Positions 91-45,588 of a DNA stretch of 45,588 bases are shown piece after piece. The DNA lies in IMG/VR virus record IMGVR_UViG_2531839665_000023. One strand, 5' to 3'. The notes below the pieces were generated by a model. It made no database searches. It was given only the letters and a program-made list of their open reading frames with translations, and was not told the origin of the DNA. The stretch comes from a virus (Duplodnaviria > Heunggongvirae > Uroviricota > Caudoviricetes). Each line of letters starts with the position of its first letter. Position 1 is the first letter of the stretch. A program made the translations under genes and the position numbers.

Positions 91-165
91 ATGACGTTGT
101 CTCCTTATTTGCAAGAGGTGGCGAAGCGCCGCACTTTTGCCATTATTTCTCACCCCAATAATTAA
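91..165 (+). pseudogene. prfC: prfC 5' remnant: native start and first 21 codons of peptide chain release factor 3, then two foreign codons and TAA
   Basis: ATG at 91 translates [24 protein letters not shown]-stop; this is the RF3 N-terminus as recalled, cut just before the GTP-binding P-loop; divergence near 153-160 marks the junction with inserted DNA. Confidence 0.75.
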
Positions 166-318
166 GCCTAAGTTAAAGCTCTTTTACTTTTTCAAAGTCC
201 TTTCAGTTAATTGAGGTTTGGCTGTATAACTCATTTAAATACATTTAGTTATGTGGATTCTTTAATTGAAAATTCTTTCATGTAACTTTAAATCGATCAG
301 GTTGCTTTCATCAAAAAT

Positions 319-381
319 CTGTACATATGCTTGTACATAATGTACAAAGCGGCAGAGGTGTTTTGCGATTTGTACAAGGTG
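319..381 (+). promoter_or_regulatory. Four TGTACA-containing repeats directly upstream of int (candidate Int arm-type sites or int promoter operator)
   Basis: TGTACA at 320-325, 333-338, 341-346, 371-376; near-palindrome TTGTACATAATGTACAA at 332-348; int ATG at 386. Confidence 0.3.
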
Positions 382-385
382 AGTA

Positions 386-1609
386 ATGGCGCTGTCTGAT
401 GCGTGGTTGCGTTCAGTCGTTGGAAAGGAACGTGATAAGGTTTTGGTTAAATCCGATCGTGATGGTCTGTCTGTCAGAGTATCACCGAAAGGTCGCGTAG
501 TGTTCCAATATCGTTATCAATGGGCAGGGAAAGGTGAGCGTCTTGATATCGGAACTTACCCGGCAACTGGATTAAAAGAGGCCAGAGAAGAAGTTATCCG
601 TCTCCGTGGTGAACTCGAGTCAAACCGTAATCCACGATTGGTCAAGCAGGCTGAAAAACGAAAAGCTACTGAAGCCATGACGGTAGAGTCTGTGATCCGT
701 GCCTGGTATGAAGCATATTGTGTAAAAAATAAAAAGGGGTCTGAACAGATACTCCGCTCGTTTGAGCTGCACCTGTTCTCTAAAATCGGGAATATCCCTC
801 ACGATACAGCTACATTGCATGATTGGTTAGAAGTCCTGGAGCCTCTTAGCACTAAGACTCCAGCAATAGCAGACCGATTGCTAATTAACGCAAAGCAGGC
901 CCATGTCTGGGCGTATAAGAGAAAGCTCATTGAAACTCGCCCGCTGTCGGATATCACGGGTAAAGATATGGATATCCGTAAAGGTCAGAAGAAACGGTTT
1001 CTGACACATGATGAAATTAAAATCCTTTATGCTGCGATCGATGGTTCTCGAATGGTTCCTAAATACCGGGCCTTCATTAAACTATTGCTGCATTTTGGCT
1101 GCCGTAGTTCAGAGCTAATTACCGCCAGGGTGGACGATTTTGATTTCATTAATAAAGTATGGACTGTACCACCAGAACGACATAAGACTGGGGCGATAAC
1201 AGGCGAACCGCTAAAGCGGCCCATTATTGAACCGGTTGAAGAGCTTATAAAGTACGCTATCTCTATGAACAATGGTTCCGATATGCTTTTTACTAAGGAA
1301 GGAAGCAGGGAACCCGTTGGTCGGACATCATTGCAGTCGCTGCCTTACAATTTAATGCAGTACGCATGGCGGCGTTTGGGGTATCAATTCCCTCATTGGT
1401 CTCTTCATGATTTGAGGCGAACAGCACGAACAAACTTTTCTGATCTTACTGCGCCTCATATTGCAGAAATAATGCTCGGTCATAAACTGCCAGGGGTATG
1501 GCAGGTTTATGACAAGAGCGATTATTTAGAAGAACAGCGTAAAGCTTACCAGGCATGGTGGGAGAGAGTTGAATCGATCGTTACTCGTACCAGCTCAGAC
1601 TCCAACTGA
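386..1609 (+). CDS. int: Tyrosine site-specific integrase, P4-like family
   Basis: 407 aa; N-terminal arm-binding-type region (LSVRVSPKGRVVFQYRY), C-terminal catalytic motifs including HDLRRTARTN; sits next to the host/phage junction. Confidence 0.93.
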   Translation: MALSDAWLRSVVGKERDKVLVKSDRDGLSVRVSPKGRVVFQYRYQWAGKGERLDIGTYPATGLKEAREEVIRLRGELESNRNPRLVKQAEKRKATEAMTVESVIRAWYEAYCVKNKKGSEQILRSFELHLFSKIGNIPHDTATLHDWLEVLEPLSTKTPAIADRLLINAKQAHVWAYKRKLIETRPLSDITGKDMDIRKGQKKRFLTHDEIKILYAAIDGSRMVPKYRAFIKLLLHFGCRSSELITARVDDFDFINKVWTVPPERHKTGAITGEPLKRPIIEPVEELIKYAISMNNGSDMLFTKEGSREPVGRTSLQSLPYNLMQYAWRRLGYQFPHWSLHDLRRTARTNFSDLTAPHIAEIMLGHKLPGVWQVYDKSDYLEEQRKAYQAWWERVESIVTRTSSDSN

Positions 1610-6466: not shown

Positions 6467-6494
6467 ATTATGTACCTCATAGGTACATTGTCAA
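6467..6494 (-). promoter_or_regulatory. PL-like early-left promoter
   Basis: Minus strand TTGACA (6489-6494), 16-nt spacer, CATAAT (6467-6472); operator palindrome occupies the spacer. Confidence 0.55.
6471..6487. promoter_or_regulatory. OL operator, 17-bp palindrome TGTACCTCATAGGTACA
   Basis: Same half-sites as the two OR palindromes at 7226 and 7276. Confidence 0.55.
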
Positions 6495-6533: not shown

Positions 6534-7208
6534 TTAGGCCTTTATTGTGTATCTTCTTGGTTTTCCCGAGAAAATCACTGTACCAATTATAGAGCAATTA
6601 CCGTTAATCTTAATGTAAGGCTCAGGCCAGTTTGGGTTTAATGCTTTGAGATAACGCTGTGTTCCATCTTCTATCAATCGCTTGAAGGTGGTTTCGCCTG
6701 TATCGTGCATCAATGCAATAACGTCGTCACCGTGGCAGGCAGGGACTTCGGGATCAACAAAAATCATGTCTCCAGGGCGGTACTCATCAATCATTGAATC
6801 ACCAATCACCCGCAAGATATAAGTCATTTCGCCACAGGGTACAGGGCAGGGATACGTTTCTGCTGTGCTCAAATCAACCTCAGAATAGCCAACTTCTTTC
6901 CATGCTCCGGCCTGTACCCATGATATGACAGGGACTAACGTTATTTGTTTGTTAGTGATTGAAACATCAGGTTTTTTTGTGATGTTCGTTGTCTGGTGTT
7001 CTTGATCAAGCCATCCGACAGGCAGGTCGAAACATTTTTCGATGTGCCGTGCCATGCTGTCACCGATATTTTTAGTAGCGCCATCCCCCATAAACCTGCT
7101 GGTTTGGGTTGGCTCGCGATCAATCATGGTGGCAAAGGATGAATTTCCGCCAACACCATCTCTCAGTTTTCTGGCGTTAGACCGCCGGATGTCATGGATT
7201 GTTTTCAT
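6534..7208 (-). CDS. cI: CI-type prophage repressor, HTH plus S24 LexA-like autopeptidase
   Basis: 224 aa; N-terminal HTH; QAGAW (Ala-Gly cleavage site), GDSM serine and downstream lysine (TFKRL). Confidence 0.9.
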   Translation of the reverse strand: MKTIHDIRRSNARKLRDGVGGNSSFATMIDREPTQTSRFMGDGATKNIGDSMARHIEKCFDLPVGWLDQEHQTTNITKKPDVSITNKQITLVPVISWVQAGAWKEVGYSEVDLSTAETYPCPVPCGEMTYILRVIGDSMIDEYRPGDMIFVDPEVPACHGDDVIALMHDTGETTFKRLIEDGTQRYLKALNPNWPEPYIKINGNCSIIGTVIFSGKPRRYTIKA

Positions 7209-7225
7209 AACGAAATTAAAACCTT

Positions 7226-7242
7226 TGTACCGATAAGGTACA
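7226..7242. promoter_or_regulatory. OR operator, 17-bp palindrome TGTACCGATAAGGTACA
   Basis: Between divergent cI and cro starts; overlaps predicted PRM -35. Confidence 0.55.
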
Positions 7243-7248
7243 AGTATC

Positions 7249-7276
7249 TTGAAGGTTCATTTCAATCATGTAATAT
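7249..7276 (+). promoter_or_regulatory. PR-like early-right promoter
   Basis: TTGAAG (7249-7254), 16-nt spacer, TAATAT (7271-7276), operator immediately downstream. Confidence 0.5.
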
Positions 7277-7292
7277 GTATACCGGAGGTACA
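7276..7292. promoter_or_regulatory. OR operator variant TGTATACCGGAGGTACA
   Basis: Shares GGTACA half-site; covers the predicted PR start site and the cro ribosome-binding site. Confidence 0.5.
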
Positions 7293-7298
7293 TATTGT

Positions 7299-7499
7299 AT
7301 GAAAGCGTATTGGGACTCTTTAACCAAAGAACAGCAGGGCGAGTTGGCCGGAAAAGTTGGCTCAACACCTGGCTACTTACGGCTGGTTTTCAATGGTTAT
7401 AAAAAAGCCAGTTTTGTGCTGGCGAAAAAACTTGAGCAATGCACGTCAGGTGCAATTACGAAATCTGACTTAAGACCGGATATCTATCCGAAAGATTAA
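7299..7499 (+). CDS. cro: Cro-like small HTH regulator
   Basis: 66 aa from the ATG preceded by GGAGGT; divergent from cI across the operator region. Confidence 0.75.
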   Translation: MKAYWDSLTKEQQGELAGKVGSTPGYLRLVFNGYKKASFVLAKKLEQCTSGAITKSDLRPDIYPKD

Positions 7500-10776: not shown

Positions 10777-11162
10777 AGCTTATCCTGCCTTTCCCGCCCA
10801 GCGTGAACACTTACTGGCGACACCCTAACAAAGGGGCGTTTGCAGGTAAGAGCCTGATAAGCGCGGCGGGGCGAAAATTCCAGAGCGCGGCGTGCGCAGC
10901 AATAGTTGAGCAGTTACGTCGTCTGCCGAAACCAACGTCGGCACCTGCTTCAGTGGAGATCGTGTTGTTTCCTCCGGATAACAGGATCCGCGATCTGGAT
11001 AACTATAACAAGGCGCTGTTTGACGCCCTGACCCACGCAGGTGTGTGGGAAGACGACAGCCAGGTGAAAAGAATGCTGGTGGAGTGGGGACCGGTTATCC
11101 CGGAAGGGAAGGTCGAGATCACTATCAGTAAGTACGAGAAAACGGCGGGTGCAGCCGCCTGA
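10773..11162 (+). CDS. rusA: RusA Holliday-junction resolvase
   Basis: 129 aa; RDLDNYNKALFDALTHAGVWEDDSQV catalytic-region signature. Confidence 0.9.
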   Translation: MKLILPFPPSVNTYWRHPNKGAFAGKSLISAAGRKFQSAACAAIVEQLRRLPKPTSAPASVEIVLFPPDNRIRDLDNYNKALFDALTHAGVWEDDSQVKRMLVEWGPVIPEGKVEITISKYEKTAGAAA

Positions 11163-11181: not shown

Positions 11182-11868
11182 ATGAATAATCTGATGGTCA
11201 TTGATGGTATTGAAGTTCGTCGTGATGCTTATGGACGTTACAGCCTGAACGATCTGCATCGTGCCGCAGTAGCATCTGGTGCAAATGCCAGAACGAAGGA
11301 GCCGGGAAAGTTTCTTTCCAGCCAACAGACTGTTGAACTTGTTCGGGAATTGACCGATACCCAAAATTTGGGTGTCGGTCCGGTTAATACAGTTCGTGGT
11401 GGTCCTAAGCAGGGGAGTTATGTCTGCAAGGAACTGGTGTATGCCTATGCAATGTGGATCAGTCCGTCATTCCATCTGAAGGTGATCCGTACTTTCGATA
11501 TGGTAGTCAGTGCACCGGAAAAATTATCCGGGCAGGCTGCTGACAAGATGCAGGCAGGTGTGATTCTGCTGGACTTTATGCGTCGGGAGTTAAACCTGTC
11601 TAACTCATCTGTGCTTGGGGCCTGTCAGAAACTCCAGGAGGCTGTTGGCTTACCGAATCTGGCACCGCGCTATGCCATTGATGCTCCTGCTGATGCACAC
11701 GATGGCTCAAGTCGCCCCACGCTGTCGCTGAGTGCACTGCTGAGGCAGTATGGTATCCGCCTGACGGCTAATCAGGCATATCACCAGATGGTGAAGCTGG
11801 GGATCGTTGAACAACGCGAACGATACAGCCGTACCGCGATTAACAACATCAAAAATTCTGGTCGCTGA
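11182..11868 (+). CDS. KilA-N domain protein (antirepressor-like)
   Basis: N-terminal KilA-N-type sequence (YSLNDLHRA...VYAYAMWISPSFHLKVI). Confidence 0.75.
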   Translation: MNNLMVIDGIEVRRDAYGRYSLNDLHRAAVASGANARTKEPGKFLSSQQTVELVRELTDTQNLGVGPVNTVRGGPKQGSYVCKELVYAYAMWISPSFHLKVIRTFDMVVSAPEKLSGQAADKMQAGVILLDFMRRELNLSNSSVLGACQKLQEAVGLPNLAPRYAIDAPADAHDGSSRPTLSLSALLRQYGIRLTANQAYHQMVKLGIVEQRERYSRTAINNIKNSGR

Positions 11869-40358: not shown

Positions 40359-43300
40359 ATGGCAGTAAAGATTTCAGGTGTACTGAAAGACGGCACAGGA
40401 AAACCGGTACAGAACTGCACAATCCAGCTGAAAGCAAAACGTAACAGTACCACTGTGGTGGTGAACACGCTGGCCTCAGAAAATCCGGATGAAGCCGGGC
40501 GTTACAGCATGGACGTTGAGTACGGTCAGTACAGCGTTATTCTGTTGGTGGAGGGATTCCCGCCGTCACATGCCGGGACCATCACCGTGTATGAAGATTC
40601 TCAACCCGGTACGCTGAATGATTTTCTCGGTGCCATGACGGAGGATGATGCCCGTCCGGAGGCACTGCGTCGTTTTGAACTGATGGTGGAAGAGGTGGCG
40701 CGTAACGCGTCCGTGGTGGCACAGAACACGGCAGCCGCAAAGAAGTCAGCCAGTGATGCCAGCACATCTGCCAGTGAGGCGGCAACCCGTGCGACTGATG
40801 CTGCAGATTCAGCACGTGCAGCCAGCACGTCAGCCGGACAGGCCGCGTCGTCGGCTCAGTCAGCGTCTTCCAGCGCAGGAACGGCATCAACAAAGGCCAC
40901 TGAAGCCTCAAAAAGTGCTGCCGCTGCAGAGTCCTCAAAAAGCGCGGCGGCTACCAGTGCCGGTGCGGCGAAAACGTCAGAAACGAATGCGGCAGCGTCA
41001 GAACAATCAGCCGCCACTTCTGCATCCACCGCGACCACGAAAGCGTCAGAAGCTGCCACCTCAGCCAGGGATGCGTCGGCTTCAAAAGAGGCGGCAAAAT
41101 CATCAGAAACGAACGCATCATCAAGCGCCAGTAGTGCAGCTTCCTCGGCAACGGCGGCAGGAAATTCCGCGAAGGCGGCAAAGACGTCTGAGACAAACGC
41201 CAAGTCCTCTGAAACGGCAGTAGCACAGAGTGCCTCAGCTGCGGCAGGCTCAAAAACAGCGGCTGCATCATCTGCCAGTGCCGCGTCAACAAGTGCCGGG
41301 CAGGCCTCAGCCAGTGCCACCGCCGCCGAAAAATCGGCAGAAAGCGCCGCATCATCCGCTTCAACAGCCACAACGAAGGCTGGCGAAGCCACTGAGCAGG
41401 CCACGGCAGCAGCGAGGTCAGCTTCCGCAGCGAAGACATCCGAAACGAACGCGAAAGCGTCGGAAACCCGTGCAGAATCCTCAAAAACGGCAGCGGCATC
41501 GTCCGCCAGTTCGGCGGCGTCATCGGCATCATCGGCGTCTGCTTCAAAAGATGAGGCGACCAGACAGGCGTCAGCAGCGAAGGGCAGCGCCACGACGGCA
41601 TCCACGAAGGCGACAGAGGCAGCTGGTAGTGCGACGGCAGCAGCTCAGAGCAAAAGTACGGCGGAATCTGCAGCAACACGCGCTGAGACAGCGGCAAAAC
41701 GGGCAGAGGATATTGCATCCGCCGTGGCGCTTGAGGATGCGAGCACGACGAAAAAGGGGATAGTACAGCTCAGCAGTGCGACCAACAGTACGTCTGAAAC
41801 GCTGGCGGCAACGCCAAAGGCAGTAAAATCAGCCTATGACAATGCAGAGAAACGTCTGCAGAAAGACCAGAACGGCGCTGATATACCCGATAAGGGACGC
41901 TTCCTGAACAACATTAACGCGGTCAGTAAAACAGACTTTGCTGATAAGCGTGGTATGCGTTATGTGCGGGTTAACGCTCCTGCAGGTGCAACATCTGGAA
42001 AATATTACCCTGTTGTTGTTATGCGTTCTGCTGGCTCAGTAAGCGAACTGGCATCAAGGGTCATTATCACCACGGCAACGCGAACCGCAGGCGATCCGAT
42101 GAATAACTGCGAGTTTAACGGATTTGTTATGCCTGGTGGCTGGACTGACAGGGGGCGTTATGCTTATGGAATGTTCTGGCAATATCAAAACAATGAACGA
42201 GCCATCCACTCAATAATGATGAGTAATAAGGGCGATGATTTGCGCTCTGTGTTCTATGTTGATGGCGCTGCTTTCCCTGTTTTTGCGTTTATCGAAGATG
42301 GCCTGTCAATATCCGCACCTGGTGCTGATCTCGTTGTTAATGATACGACCTATAAGTTTGGGGCAACAAATCCAGCGACTGAATGTATCGCGGCGGACGT
42401 TATCCTTGATTTTAAGAGTGGGCGTGGTTTTTATGAGTCTCATTCGTTAATCGTTAACGATAACTTGTCGTGCAAAAAACTTTTTGCCACAGACGAAATT
42501 GTAGCGCGTGGTGGTAATCAGATTCGAATGATAGGTGGGGAGTATGGTGCATTATGGCGTAATGATGGCGCTAAAACTTACCTGCTGCTTACCAATCAAG
42601 GTGATGTTTATGGTGGCTGGAATACATTAAGACCGTTTGCTATTGATAACGCAACCGGCGAGCTGGTTATTGGAACCAAACTGTCCGCAAGTCTGAACGG
42701 TAATGCATTAACAGCAACAAAGCTGCAAACGCCAAGACGGGTTTCTGGTGTTGAGTTTGATGGTTCCAAAGATATTACTTTAACCGCCGCGCATGTGGCT
42801 GCTTTTGCCAGAAGAGCAACGGATACGTATGCCGATGCGGATGGGGGCGTTCCATGGAATGCCGAATCAGGCGCTTACAATGTCACCCGCTCTGGCGACA
42901 GCTATATTCTGGTTAACTTCTATACCGGAGTCGGAAGTTGCCGGACCCTGCAGATGAAGGCGCATTACAGAAATGGAGGTCTGTTCTACCGTTCCTCAAG
43001 AGATGGCTATGGTTTTGAGGAAGACTGGGCAGAAGTTTATACCTCGAAAAATCTTCCACCAGAAAGCTACCCAGTCGGCGCACCAATCCCGTGGCCATCA
43101 GATACCGTTCCGTCTGGTTATGCCCTGATGCAGGGGCAGACTTTTGACAAATCTGCATACCCGAAACTTGCAGCCGCTTATCCGTCAGGCGTGATCCCTG
43201 ATATGCGTAGCTGGACGATTAAGGGCAAACCTGCCAGTGGTCGGGCCGTATTGTCTCAGGAACAGGACGGCATTAAATCGCACACCCACAGCGCCAGCGC

Positions 43301-43712
43301 ATCCAGTACGGATTTGGGGACGAAAACCACATCGTCGTTTGATTACGGCACTAAATCCACGAATAACACCGGGGCGCATACGCACAGTGTGAGCGGTACA
43401 GCCGCAAGTGCCGGAAACCATACTCATAGTGTCACAGGCGCATCAGCAGTCAGCCAGTGGTCACAAAATGGGTCAGTACATAAGGTAGTGTCTGCGGCCA
43501 GTGTGAATACAAGTGCTGCAGGAGCGCACACTCATAGTGTTAGCGGCACAGCCGCATCTGCAGGTGCTCACGCACATACTGTCGGTATTGGTGCTCATAC
43601 GCACTCTGTTGCGATTGGCTCACATGGACACACTATCACCGTTAACGCTGCTGGTAACGCGGAAAACACCGTCAAAAACATCGCATTTAACTACATTGTG
43701 AGGCTTGCATAA
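40359..43712 (+). CDS. stf: Side tail fibre protein Stf
   Basis: N-terminus [24 protein letters not shown] as lambda Stf; long Ala/Ser-rich repeat region; C-terminal His-rich HTHS repeats. Confidence 0.9.
40700..41720 (+). repeat. Degenerate tandem repeats inside stf encoding Ala/Ser-rich motifs (AAKTSETNA and similar)
   Basis: Repeated GCC/GCG/TCA-rich units; spawn many spurious ORFs in other frames on both strands. Confidence 0.6.
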
Positions 43713-44287
43713 TGGCATTCAGAATGAGTGAACAACCACGGACCATAAAAATTTATAATCTGCTGGCCGGAACTAATGAATTTATTGGTGAAGGTGACGC
43801 ATATATTCCGCCTCATACAGGTCTGCCAGCAAACAGTACCGATATTGCACCGCCAGATATTCCGGCAGGCTTCGTGGCTGTTTTCAACAGTGATGAGGCA
43901 TCGTGGCATCTCGTTGAAGACCATCGGGGTAAAACGGTTTATGACGTAGCGTCAGGGGACGCGTTATTTATTTCTGAACTCGGTCCGTTACCGGAAAATG
44001 TTACCTGGTTATCGCCGGAAGGGGAGTTTCAGAAGTGGAACGGCACAGCCTGGGTGAAAGATGCAGAAGCAGAAAAACTGTTCCGGATCCGGGAGGCGGA
44101 AGAAACAAAAAACAGCCTGATGCAGGTAGCCAGTGAGCATATTGCGCCGCTTCAGGATGCTGCAGATCTGGAAATTGCAACGGAGGAAGAAATCTCGTTG
44201 CTGGAAGCATGGAAAAAGTATCGGGTATTGCTGAACCGTGTTGATACGTCAACTGCACAGGATATTGAATGGCCAGCACTGCCGTAG
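43712..44287 (+). CDS. tfa: Tail fibre assembly protein Tfa
   Basis: 191 aa; near-identical to lambda Tfa as recalled ([24 protein letters not shown]); TAATG overlap with stf stop. Confidence 0.9.
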
Positions 44288-44384
44288 GGTAAAACATATA
44301 AATTCTATAATTAGATGTATCTTTCCATTTACGGCAAGGAAGGGGGCTTGGAAGACGTAAAGCATCTCACACCAAGATTATTTT

Positions 44385-44975
44385 TTATATGTCAGGTGTC
44401 TGAAGTTTTGCTTTGGCTCTTAAAATGGTTTGCCGCGAGGTTTTGAATTCCCGGGCAATGGCACTTATACTTACACCTGACTTAATCCGTTCGAATACCA
44501 CCTGTTTCTGTTCTTCATTTAACACAGGTGGTCGACCAAAACGTTTCCCTGCGCCCCGGGCTCTTACTATCCCGGAATGAGTGCGTTCAAGTAAAAGGTC
44601 TCGTTCAAATTCAGCGACTGCTGAAATTACTTGCATCATCATTTTTCCTGTTGGACTGGTCAGGTCAATGCCCCCCAATGCTAAGCAATGCACTCTGATA
44701 CCTGTTTCGGTCAGTTGTTCCACTGTTTTCCTGATATCCATTGCATTACAACCAAGGCGATCCAGTTTTGTCACAATCAATTGATCACCACATTTCAGGC
44801 GAGCAAGCAACCGGTTAAAACCAGGACGCTCACTGGTTGCTGCTGAGCCGCTAATGTGTTCTTCGATTATTTGCTGAGGTTTGATTTTAAAACCTGCACT
44901 TTCGATTTCCCGGCGTTGATTTTCGGTGGTCTGATCCAGCGTTGATATCCGACAGTAAGCAAAAATTCGAGACAT
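44385..44975 (-). CDS. pin: Serine recombinase, DNA invertase Pin/Hin/Gin family
   Basis: 196 aa; N-terminal catalytic Ser region ([12 protein letters not shown]) and C-terminal HTH. Confidence 0.93.
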
Positions 44976-45354
44976 AGTGAGACTCTATACGAAATTGGTG
45001 TACATATCATAATGCATATCCAAAAATTATTTCGCTTATTATTGTACATATTTGTATGTATACGTTCGAAAATAAACGAATTCGGATGCAGTCCCGTAAT
45101 TTTGGTGTAACCAAAAATCGATTTTTTGAAAAATGGCTTTAACTCGGTTTGTTTTTCGAACTCCGGGCGGACTCGAGGAAGACGAATAATAGTGTTGTAT
45201 GTTATTTCAACCAGATTTTAAGTTGTTTGGTCGTGGAAAAGTGGAGCAAAATGTTGTTAAAGTGGAAAAATGGTAAAAAAAGTAGGTTGTTGCGGAATAA
45301 CGTAGTTGTTGATATTTTTTTAATGCATTGAAAAATTATTTTTCAGGGGGGGTA

Positions 45355-45588
45355 TTACACTTTACCATTTAAATTTTGGTTGTCTTTAAGAACTGATATC
45401 GCTGTTTGTAATAATTCTTTGTTATCCAGCCATGACTTTTTCTTTATGTTTCCTTCAATGTAATCAAGCAATGTTCTGGTATTGATAGGTCTTCCCTGTT
45501 TTGCTACTTCCACGACAGCATCTCCCAGGATAATTCTGACTTCAGGAAGCTGCGCAGGGAACCACTTTAGGGTGTCTTTTGATTTCAT
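45355..45588 (-). CDS. YdfK/YnaE-like small prophage protein
   Basis: 77 aa, complete (start codon at window edge); MKSKDTLKWFPAQLPEV matches Rac/Qin YnaE/YdfK as recalled. Confidence 0.6.
   Translation of the reverse strand: MKSKDTLKWFPAQLPEVRIILGDAVVEVAKQGRPINTRTLLDYIEGNIKKKSWLDNKELLQTAISVLKDNQNLNGKV

Follow-up and report, generated by a model that had tools for sequence, protein, structure and literature searches.

What do the four TGTACA hexamers crowded into the DNA just before the integrase gene (int) of this Caudoviricetes prophage do, and which protein reads them? A preliminary description of the window (the whole stretch of DNA analysed here, 45,588 nucleotides long) had proposed that they are either arm-type sites for the integrase Int or the binding site of a regulator, and had suggested from their likeness to the repressor operators that cI might also control int. 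Comparative evidence strongly supports the first of these proposals. We consider it likely that the repeats are arm-type (accessory) sites of the prophage's own Int, lying in the P' arm of the attachment site, because the motif occurs on both arms, Int carries an arm-binding domain, the layout is conserved among relatives and the motif changes with Int, as in Gifsy-1.

The window represents a lambdoid prophage that has integrated into the 5' end of the host gene prfC. Similarity to phages cdtI and Ayreon runs from position 114 onward, and Stx1a and Stx2c prophages inserted in prfC match positions 1-1616. The host prfC start corresponds to 91-157, and the split behind codon 22 leaves a 24-codon stub downstream of the host promoter, the truncated prfC' (91-165, plus strand), made of 22 host codons, two phage codons and a stop. 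The attL core, or crossover identity segment, is the 14-bp ATTATTTCTCACCC at 142-155, to which we assign no strand and which is free of GTAC; phage and host sequences diverge on both sides of it. Record LC727889 annotates these 14 bp as 'duplication due to insertion', and attR of the source genome (E. coli JB2), approximately 1.1 kb past the window end, holds the same 14-mer. At attR (locus L253, about 11030-11100, minus strand) a phage-supplied start is fused to the remaining prfC, the product of which carries the annotation of full-length RF3. The far end of the P arm, next to attR and outside the window (L001, 1268-1320; L253, about 11250-11305), holds a DinI-like gene with two LexA-box-like sequences (TACTGTGTTTGTATACAGTA and AACTGTATGAATAAACAGTG) in front of it, so that an apparently SOS-regulated gene abuts the attachment site.

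Between the core and the int ATG at 386, which are on the same strand with no gene between them, lies the int-proximal P' arm of attL and attP (156-385, plus strand), which is also the 5' flanking or leader region of int and is collinear with the attP of cdtI and Ayreon. Since the prophage sits in the 5' end of prfC with its core at 142-155, the TGTACA cluster falls within this arm, and since int is transcribed away from the core, its 5' control region is wholly contained in the arm. The gene itself (386-1609, plus strand) encodes a tyrosine integrase; its ATG is the first possible start past the upstream stop, and the N-terminus MALSD.WL is kept in homologues. Pfam assigns residues 3-90 to the arm-DNA-binding family Arm-DNA-bind_3 (60 bits versus a cut-off of 27), followed by Phage_int_M and Phage_integrase domains, and the first ~90 residues match the solved N-domains of CP4-like integrases (PDB 3jtz and 3ju0). 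Beyond int stand two plus-strand open reading frames without a Pfam match (1710-2162 and 2204-2686) and then a 64-aa gene on the minus strand (2782-2976), a candidate excisionase or recombination directionality factor (RDF) with a weak HTH_17/MerR-type match below the Pfam cut-off. The candidate excisionase gene is convergent with int and is therefore not co-transcribed with it; a Serratia relative has a similar small HTH_17 gene opposite int. In cdtI a single 710-aa open reading frame fills the slot between int and the 64-aa gene, which marks this as a variable cargo position.

A motif scan of the window places TGTACA at 320-325, 332-337, 341-346 and 371-376, confirming the four copies described earlier, the first of them 66 bp before the ATG. 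Extended to eight bases, these are the predicted arm-type sites P'1 (CTGTACAT, 319-326, plus strand), P'2 (TTGTACAT, 331-338, plus strand, 12 bp from P'1), P'3 (ATGTACAA, the inverted TTGTACAT, 340-347, minus strand) and P'4 (TTGTACAA, a self-complementary 8-mer without strand, 370-377). P'1 is the first member of a conserved yGTACr-N6-yGTACr tandem, and P'4 lies 9 bp upstream of the int ATG, where it abuts the ribosome-binding site AAGGTG. What had been called a near-palindrome is real and in fact perfect: P'2 and P'3 together form a 17-bp inverted repeat of 8+1+8 at 331-347 (TTGTACAT-A-ATGTACAA). The whole-window total of TGTACA is unremarkable (9 observed versus 8.9 expected), and it is their placement that stands out, with four of the nine copies in 45.6 kb held in a 57-bp span. 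None of 200,000 random placements of nine sites gave four or more within 57 bp, and the first-order Markov model of the AT-rich segment 158-385 itself predicts 0.08 copies there.

Near the other end of the window, two further copies of TGTACATAT (44998-45005 and 45042-45049) stand 44 bp apart, directly upstream of a gene for a Pin-like DNA invertase (44385-44975, minus strand) and ahead of ydfK. By a back-of-envelope estimate such a pair would arise by chance roughly 2% of the time, and we saw no evident link to Int. Of 5,426 E. coli genomes, 5,100 match a query made of 41000-45588, with at least 80% of the query covered in 740; the int module is found in only 701 E. coli genomes.

In the intact attP of cdtI, 8 of the 13 TGTACA copies of the 47-kb genome are found, four on each side of the core. 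Measured from the core centre, the P-arm copies are at -187, -118, -90 and -78 and the P'-arm copies at +174, +186, +195 and +225. The P arms of cdtI and Ayreon carry, in order, ATGTACAA, ATGTACAA, TTGTACAT and TTGTACAT, and four P-arm copies are likewise present in Ayreon and in the attR of both Stx2c_EH0430 and the source genome; this P-arm comparison covers the E. coli-type phages and Gifsy-1. The likeness of the arms extends beyond the hexamer, given that the 22-bp P'1-P'2 unit TGTACATATGcTTGTACATAAT is repeated on the P arm with one mismatch, a unit common to both arms in direct orientation as TGTACATATG(A/C)TTGTACATAAT. When the k-mers of attP are counted without bias, TGTACA ranks first among the hexamers and is the sole motif common to both arms, and the 8-mer TTGTACAT/ATGTACAA occurs six times, in both orientations. 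A motif on both arms and in both orientations is the arrangement expected of arm-type sites. At attR the two core-nearest P-arm copies come to lie 25-45 bp upstream of the phage-supplied prfC ATG.

On this layout we would picture a heterobivalent Int. Its C-terminal domains would act on the core ATTATTTCTCACCC in prfC, and its N-terminal Arm-DNA-bind_3 domain would dock on (T)TGTACA(T) at the four P' copies (319-377) and the four P copies, the latter sitting in the lysogen at attR, ~1.1 kb beyond the window end. By bridging core and arm, Int would assemble the intasome for integration or, together with an excisionase, for excision. Binding of the TGTACA sites by Int is thus a prediction from sequence.

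Conservation of the motif in related attachment arms, which had been named as a test of the idea, is found both among close and among distant relatives. Sites 1-3 show no variation, and site 4 hardly any, in 60 distinct P' arms drawn from 114 loci. In Trabulsiella, Pantoea and two metagenome contigs (L151 and L152), whose Int is 84-85% identical, most of the arm is unalignable and the blocks that survive comprise the core, a set of three CyTTTCA boxes and all four TGTACA sites, the latter at offsets of -65, -53, -44 and -15 from the int ATG versus -66, -54, -45 and -15 in the window. Relatives with 50-65% identical Int, from Xenorhabdus, Serratia, Pseudomonas, Acidovorax and marine or high-GC metagenomes, use the same prfC insertion point, and all of them have yGTACr-N6-yGTACA-TAA followed ~30 nt on by an inverted copy near the ATG. 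Taking the 100 nt before int from each of 16 prfC-inserted gamma- and beta-proteobacterial lineages (Int 50-100% identical), we counted 52 yGTACr in these 1,600 nt versus 17 in the other 53,837 nt, a 103-fold enrichment. Each locus has one and only one 12-bp tandem yGTACr-N6-yGTACr, in every case at -65 to -82, and an inverted copy equivalent to P'4 stands at -15 to -30 from the ATG in 16 of 16 lineages; the enterobacterial lineages (Int at least 84% identical) have P'3, which the relatives at 50-65% lack. The conservation of the motif extends as far as that of the Int N-domain. Moraxella phage Mcat19, with a 41% identical Int, has TGTACAtaattgTGTACAtaa directly before int. Scans of viral contigs for divergent relatives returned only Int matches of 97-99% identity, which are uninformative on divergence.

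Gifsy-1, which we take to be inserted in lepA, has an Int 47% identical to that of the window and a core sequence different from that of the prfC prophage. Its reconstructed attP (from loci L258 and L260) carries TGTCCAccgctgTGTCCA on one arm and TGTCCAccagtgCGTCCAtat on the other, with two inverted TGGACAc copies beside the int ATG on the arm with TGTCCAccagtgCGTCCAtat. Thus yGTCCA takes the place of yGTACA, and there is a 12-bp-spaced TGTCCA tandem on each arm. Klebsiella phage 5 (Int ~47%) has the same motif and layout on its P' arm, the only arm available because the record stops inside an apparent tail gene. A one-base change of motif within the same architecture is as expected if the Int N-domain reads the sites, and we predict from the sequence pattern that the Gifsy-1 TGTCCA repeats are Int arm-type sites, one base off the TGTACA family. 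The portion of the literature available to us describes only the Xis sites of Gifsy-1 as characterised as of 2008 (Flanigan & Gardner, cited in PMC2603039). The two elements are alike in having a 12-bp tandem per arm and inverted copies at the int ATG; they differ in motif and target, and in Gifsy-1, too, the Int sites are predictions.

Several other readings of the cluster can be weighed against this evidence. The preliminary description had recognised TGTACC/GGTACA correctly as repressor operator half-sites. The cI gene (6534-7208, minus strand), whose product has a Peptidase_S24 domain, is flanked by operators, namely the 19-bp dyads TTGTACCGATAAGGTACAA at 7225-7243 and ATGTACCTCATAGGTACAT at 6470-6488, with TGTACC-N5-GGTACA exact from 7226 and 6471, respectively, and a weaker copy at 7274-7292 with two mismatches (match at 7276). 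The cI operators follow the consensus wTGTACC-N5-GGTACAw, and the immunity region also encodes a 65-aa Cro-like protein (7302-7499) with a sub-threshold YdaS_toxin (HTH) match. That the cluster consists of weak cI operators, through which the repressor would also shut off int in the lysogen, could draw on the GTAC core that the dyads (TTGTACC-N5-GGTACAA) have in common with it and on cdtI, in which this int module occurs together with the same cI (99%). The spacing is wrong, however: GTAC centres are 12 and 9 bp apart in the cluster versus 11 bp in the operators, the best match to TGTACC-N5-GGTACA in 300-385 has mismatches at 5 of 12 positions (565 positions in the window are equal or better), and TTGTAC-N7-GTACAA has no match within two mismatches in 300-385. 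Moreover, Stx2c_EH0430 has a cI related in its C-terminal part only (35% identity over residues 76-211) and operators of the form ATGTAGG/CCTACAT, yet its attL cluster is identical and its four P-arm copies are retained. Beta- and gamma-proteobacterial elements keep the layout, as does Gifsy-1 with a single base altered, and repressor control gives no reason for four copies on the other attP arm. We therefore find it scarcely credible that cI acts here. The suggested control of int by cI is not supported, with no operator match at the right spacing and a cluster that stays identical next to other operators; we do not regard the repeats as a further target for the phage repressor, and the similarity is confined to the GTAC core. 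A purely transcriptional role, as promoter hexamers or as sites of a dedicated regulator with no part in recombination, would fit the position of the repeats, no more than 66 bp from the int ATG in each relative, as well as the -10-like CATAAT inside TGTACATAAT. It does not account for the four further copies on the far attP arm, more than 260 bp upstream of int and across the core, nor for the far-arm copies of Gifsy-1; the repeats build no consensus promoter, and the candidate hexamers vary between lineages. We judge such a role very unlikely.

The low G+C content of the cluster region (31%) and the 17-bp palindrome, which could form a short hairpin, might suggest a cluster that arose by chance in AT-rich sequence, or else a hairpin, of RNA or DNA, such as an attenuator. 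Both the random placements and the Markov model put the clustering well outside what chance would give, the RNA fold of 300-400 does not improve on shuffled sequences (z = -1.0), the one Rfam match is a sub-threshold chance match inside int, away from the cluster, and the palindrome, with site 3, is lost in distant relatives that retain the other sites. Clustering, conservation across 16 lineages and the fold test effectively refute this reading, to which we attach almost no probability. A different protein is the remaining alternative: an RDF or host factor could bind TGTACA, with the true arm sites of Int elsewhere, for example at CTTTCA. Three direct repeats of this second motif (200-205, 275-280 and 305-310, plus strand) stand in ~165 nt where 0.12 copies are expected, and they are candidate sites for an excisionase or accessory protein. 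Palindromic hexamers would suit a dimeric HTH protein, and the HTH_17-like gene near int, found in the Serratia relative too, might encode a co-inherited RDF, the sites of which would show the same conservation. An RDF typically binds short direct repeats confined to one arm, whereas TGTACA is on both arms and in both orientations. The CTTTCA boxes are kept as blocks in the relatives with 84% identical Int while their flanks diverge, but in distant relatives (~50% Int) GACAAyCTGAGmC repeats stand in their place, and in Gifsy-1 there are AACCTACGACA repeats. TGTACA is thus conserved together with the Int N-domain, whereas the CTTTCA family changes completely, the pattern of a fast-evolving RDF. 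The Gifsy-1 Xis site, described in the part of the source available to us as tripartite and built of imperfect direct repeats (PMC2603039), also speaks against assigning TGTACA to an RDF. We regard an RDF or host factor as an unlikely reader of TGTACA, and by analogy with the TorI sites in KplE1 attL the CTTTCA repeats may be excisionase sites.

If the TGTACA repeats are arm-type sites of Int, their position in the int leader bears on expression of the gene. A scan of 1-700 for sigma-70 consensus promoters gave only a prfC promoter-like site at 1-28 and none in 158-385, and no terminator was found between that site and int. Hexamers picked by eye (CATAAT at 336-341, and TTGCTT-18-TATGCT) are weak and not conserved between lineages, so no promoter was assigned. 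Expression of int may depend on a weak or activated promoter, or on read-through from the prfC promoter-like site. Arm-bound Int would lower int transcription, a negative autoregulation like that of KplE1 IntS; by this analogy, Int probably represses its own gene through the TGTACA sites. A wider role is conceivable, in which the arm sites act as a transcriptional gate, with bound Int blocking read-through from the prfC promoter and also modulating release factor 3 in the lysogen. The idea arises because int lies downstream of the intact prfC promoter without a terminator and because the P-arm copies precede the rebuilt prfC start by 25-45 bp; a scan of cdtI attP found no plus-strand promoter for the rebuilt gene. 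The layout relevant to a gate is kept from E. coli phages to Pseudomonas and Acidovorax elements. We hold the gate to be improbable; if true, it would couple the recombinase level to a host translation factor.

Several features count against the arm-type reading. TGTACA is self-complementary, which is unusual for arm-type sites, and asymmetry can come only from the flanks (TGTACAT/A-rich). The P' sites are also 174-225 bp from the core, and in lambda they are nearer. No match to the IHF consensus WATCAANNNNTTR within one mismatch was found in 101-385 (core and P' arm) to explain the necessary bending. Our search of the literature turned up no account of an arm-type motif TGTACA. Arm sites beside int are normal for such phages, and the present result is an incremental addition rather than a new mechanism. 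What it offers, for the widespread integrases that target prfC, is a probable arm-site motif and a probable attP architecture. Their family includes those of cdtI and the Stx-converting phages of pathogenic E. coli and of gamma- and beta-proteobacterial relatives, and the result should be useful for annotating the attP of cdtI and Stx phages. TGTACA here and TGTCCA in Gifsy-1 would make a natural specificity pair for how Arm-DNA-bind_3 domains read DNA. The further prediction that int is self-limited in toxin-converting prophages would bear on how easily they excise.

Among known systems, KplE1 (CPS-53) of E. coli K-12 has an intS promoter located in attL and overlapped by IntS arm-type sites (Panis et al. 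2010, PMC2951348); repression of intS is ~5-fold by IntS and likewise ~5-fold by the RDF TorI (PMC2951348). As in the prfC prophage, int lies beside attL and is transcribed away from the core, the P' arm-type sites occupy the last ~70 bp before the ATG (predicted ones in our case), other direct repeats stand just upstream (TorI sites there, CTTTCA here) and the RDF gene, here a candidate, is outside the int operon. The two differ in target, which is a tRNA gene for KplE1 and the 5' end of a protein gene here; in arm motif, since the KplE1 sites share TAAA and are unrelated to TGTACA; and in the promoter, which overlaps the arm sites in KplE1 and has no visible consensus here.

Lambda resembles the prfC prophage in its heterobivalent Int, a property predicted for ours, in a non-core motif on both arms and in both orientations, and in tandems spaced by about one helical turn. 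Its N-domain belongs to a family other than Arm-DNA-bind_3. Lambda has five arm-type sites (P1, P2 and P'1-P'3), whereas we predict eight for the prfC prophage in an attP of ~430 bp; the 3' end of lambda int faces att, whereas int of the prfC prophage points away, with the sites overlapping its 5' region.

SXT presumably supplies a replacement prfC 5' end, as the prfC prophage does. The SXT/R391 ICEs target the 5' end of prfC (PMC4344509), which makes the target the same, and in SXT, too, xis and int are not in one operon. A difference is that SXT int is expressed from the SetCD-dependent Ps003 promoter (PMC4344509).
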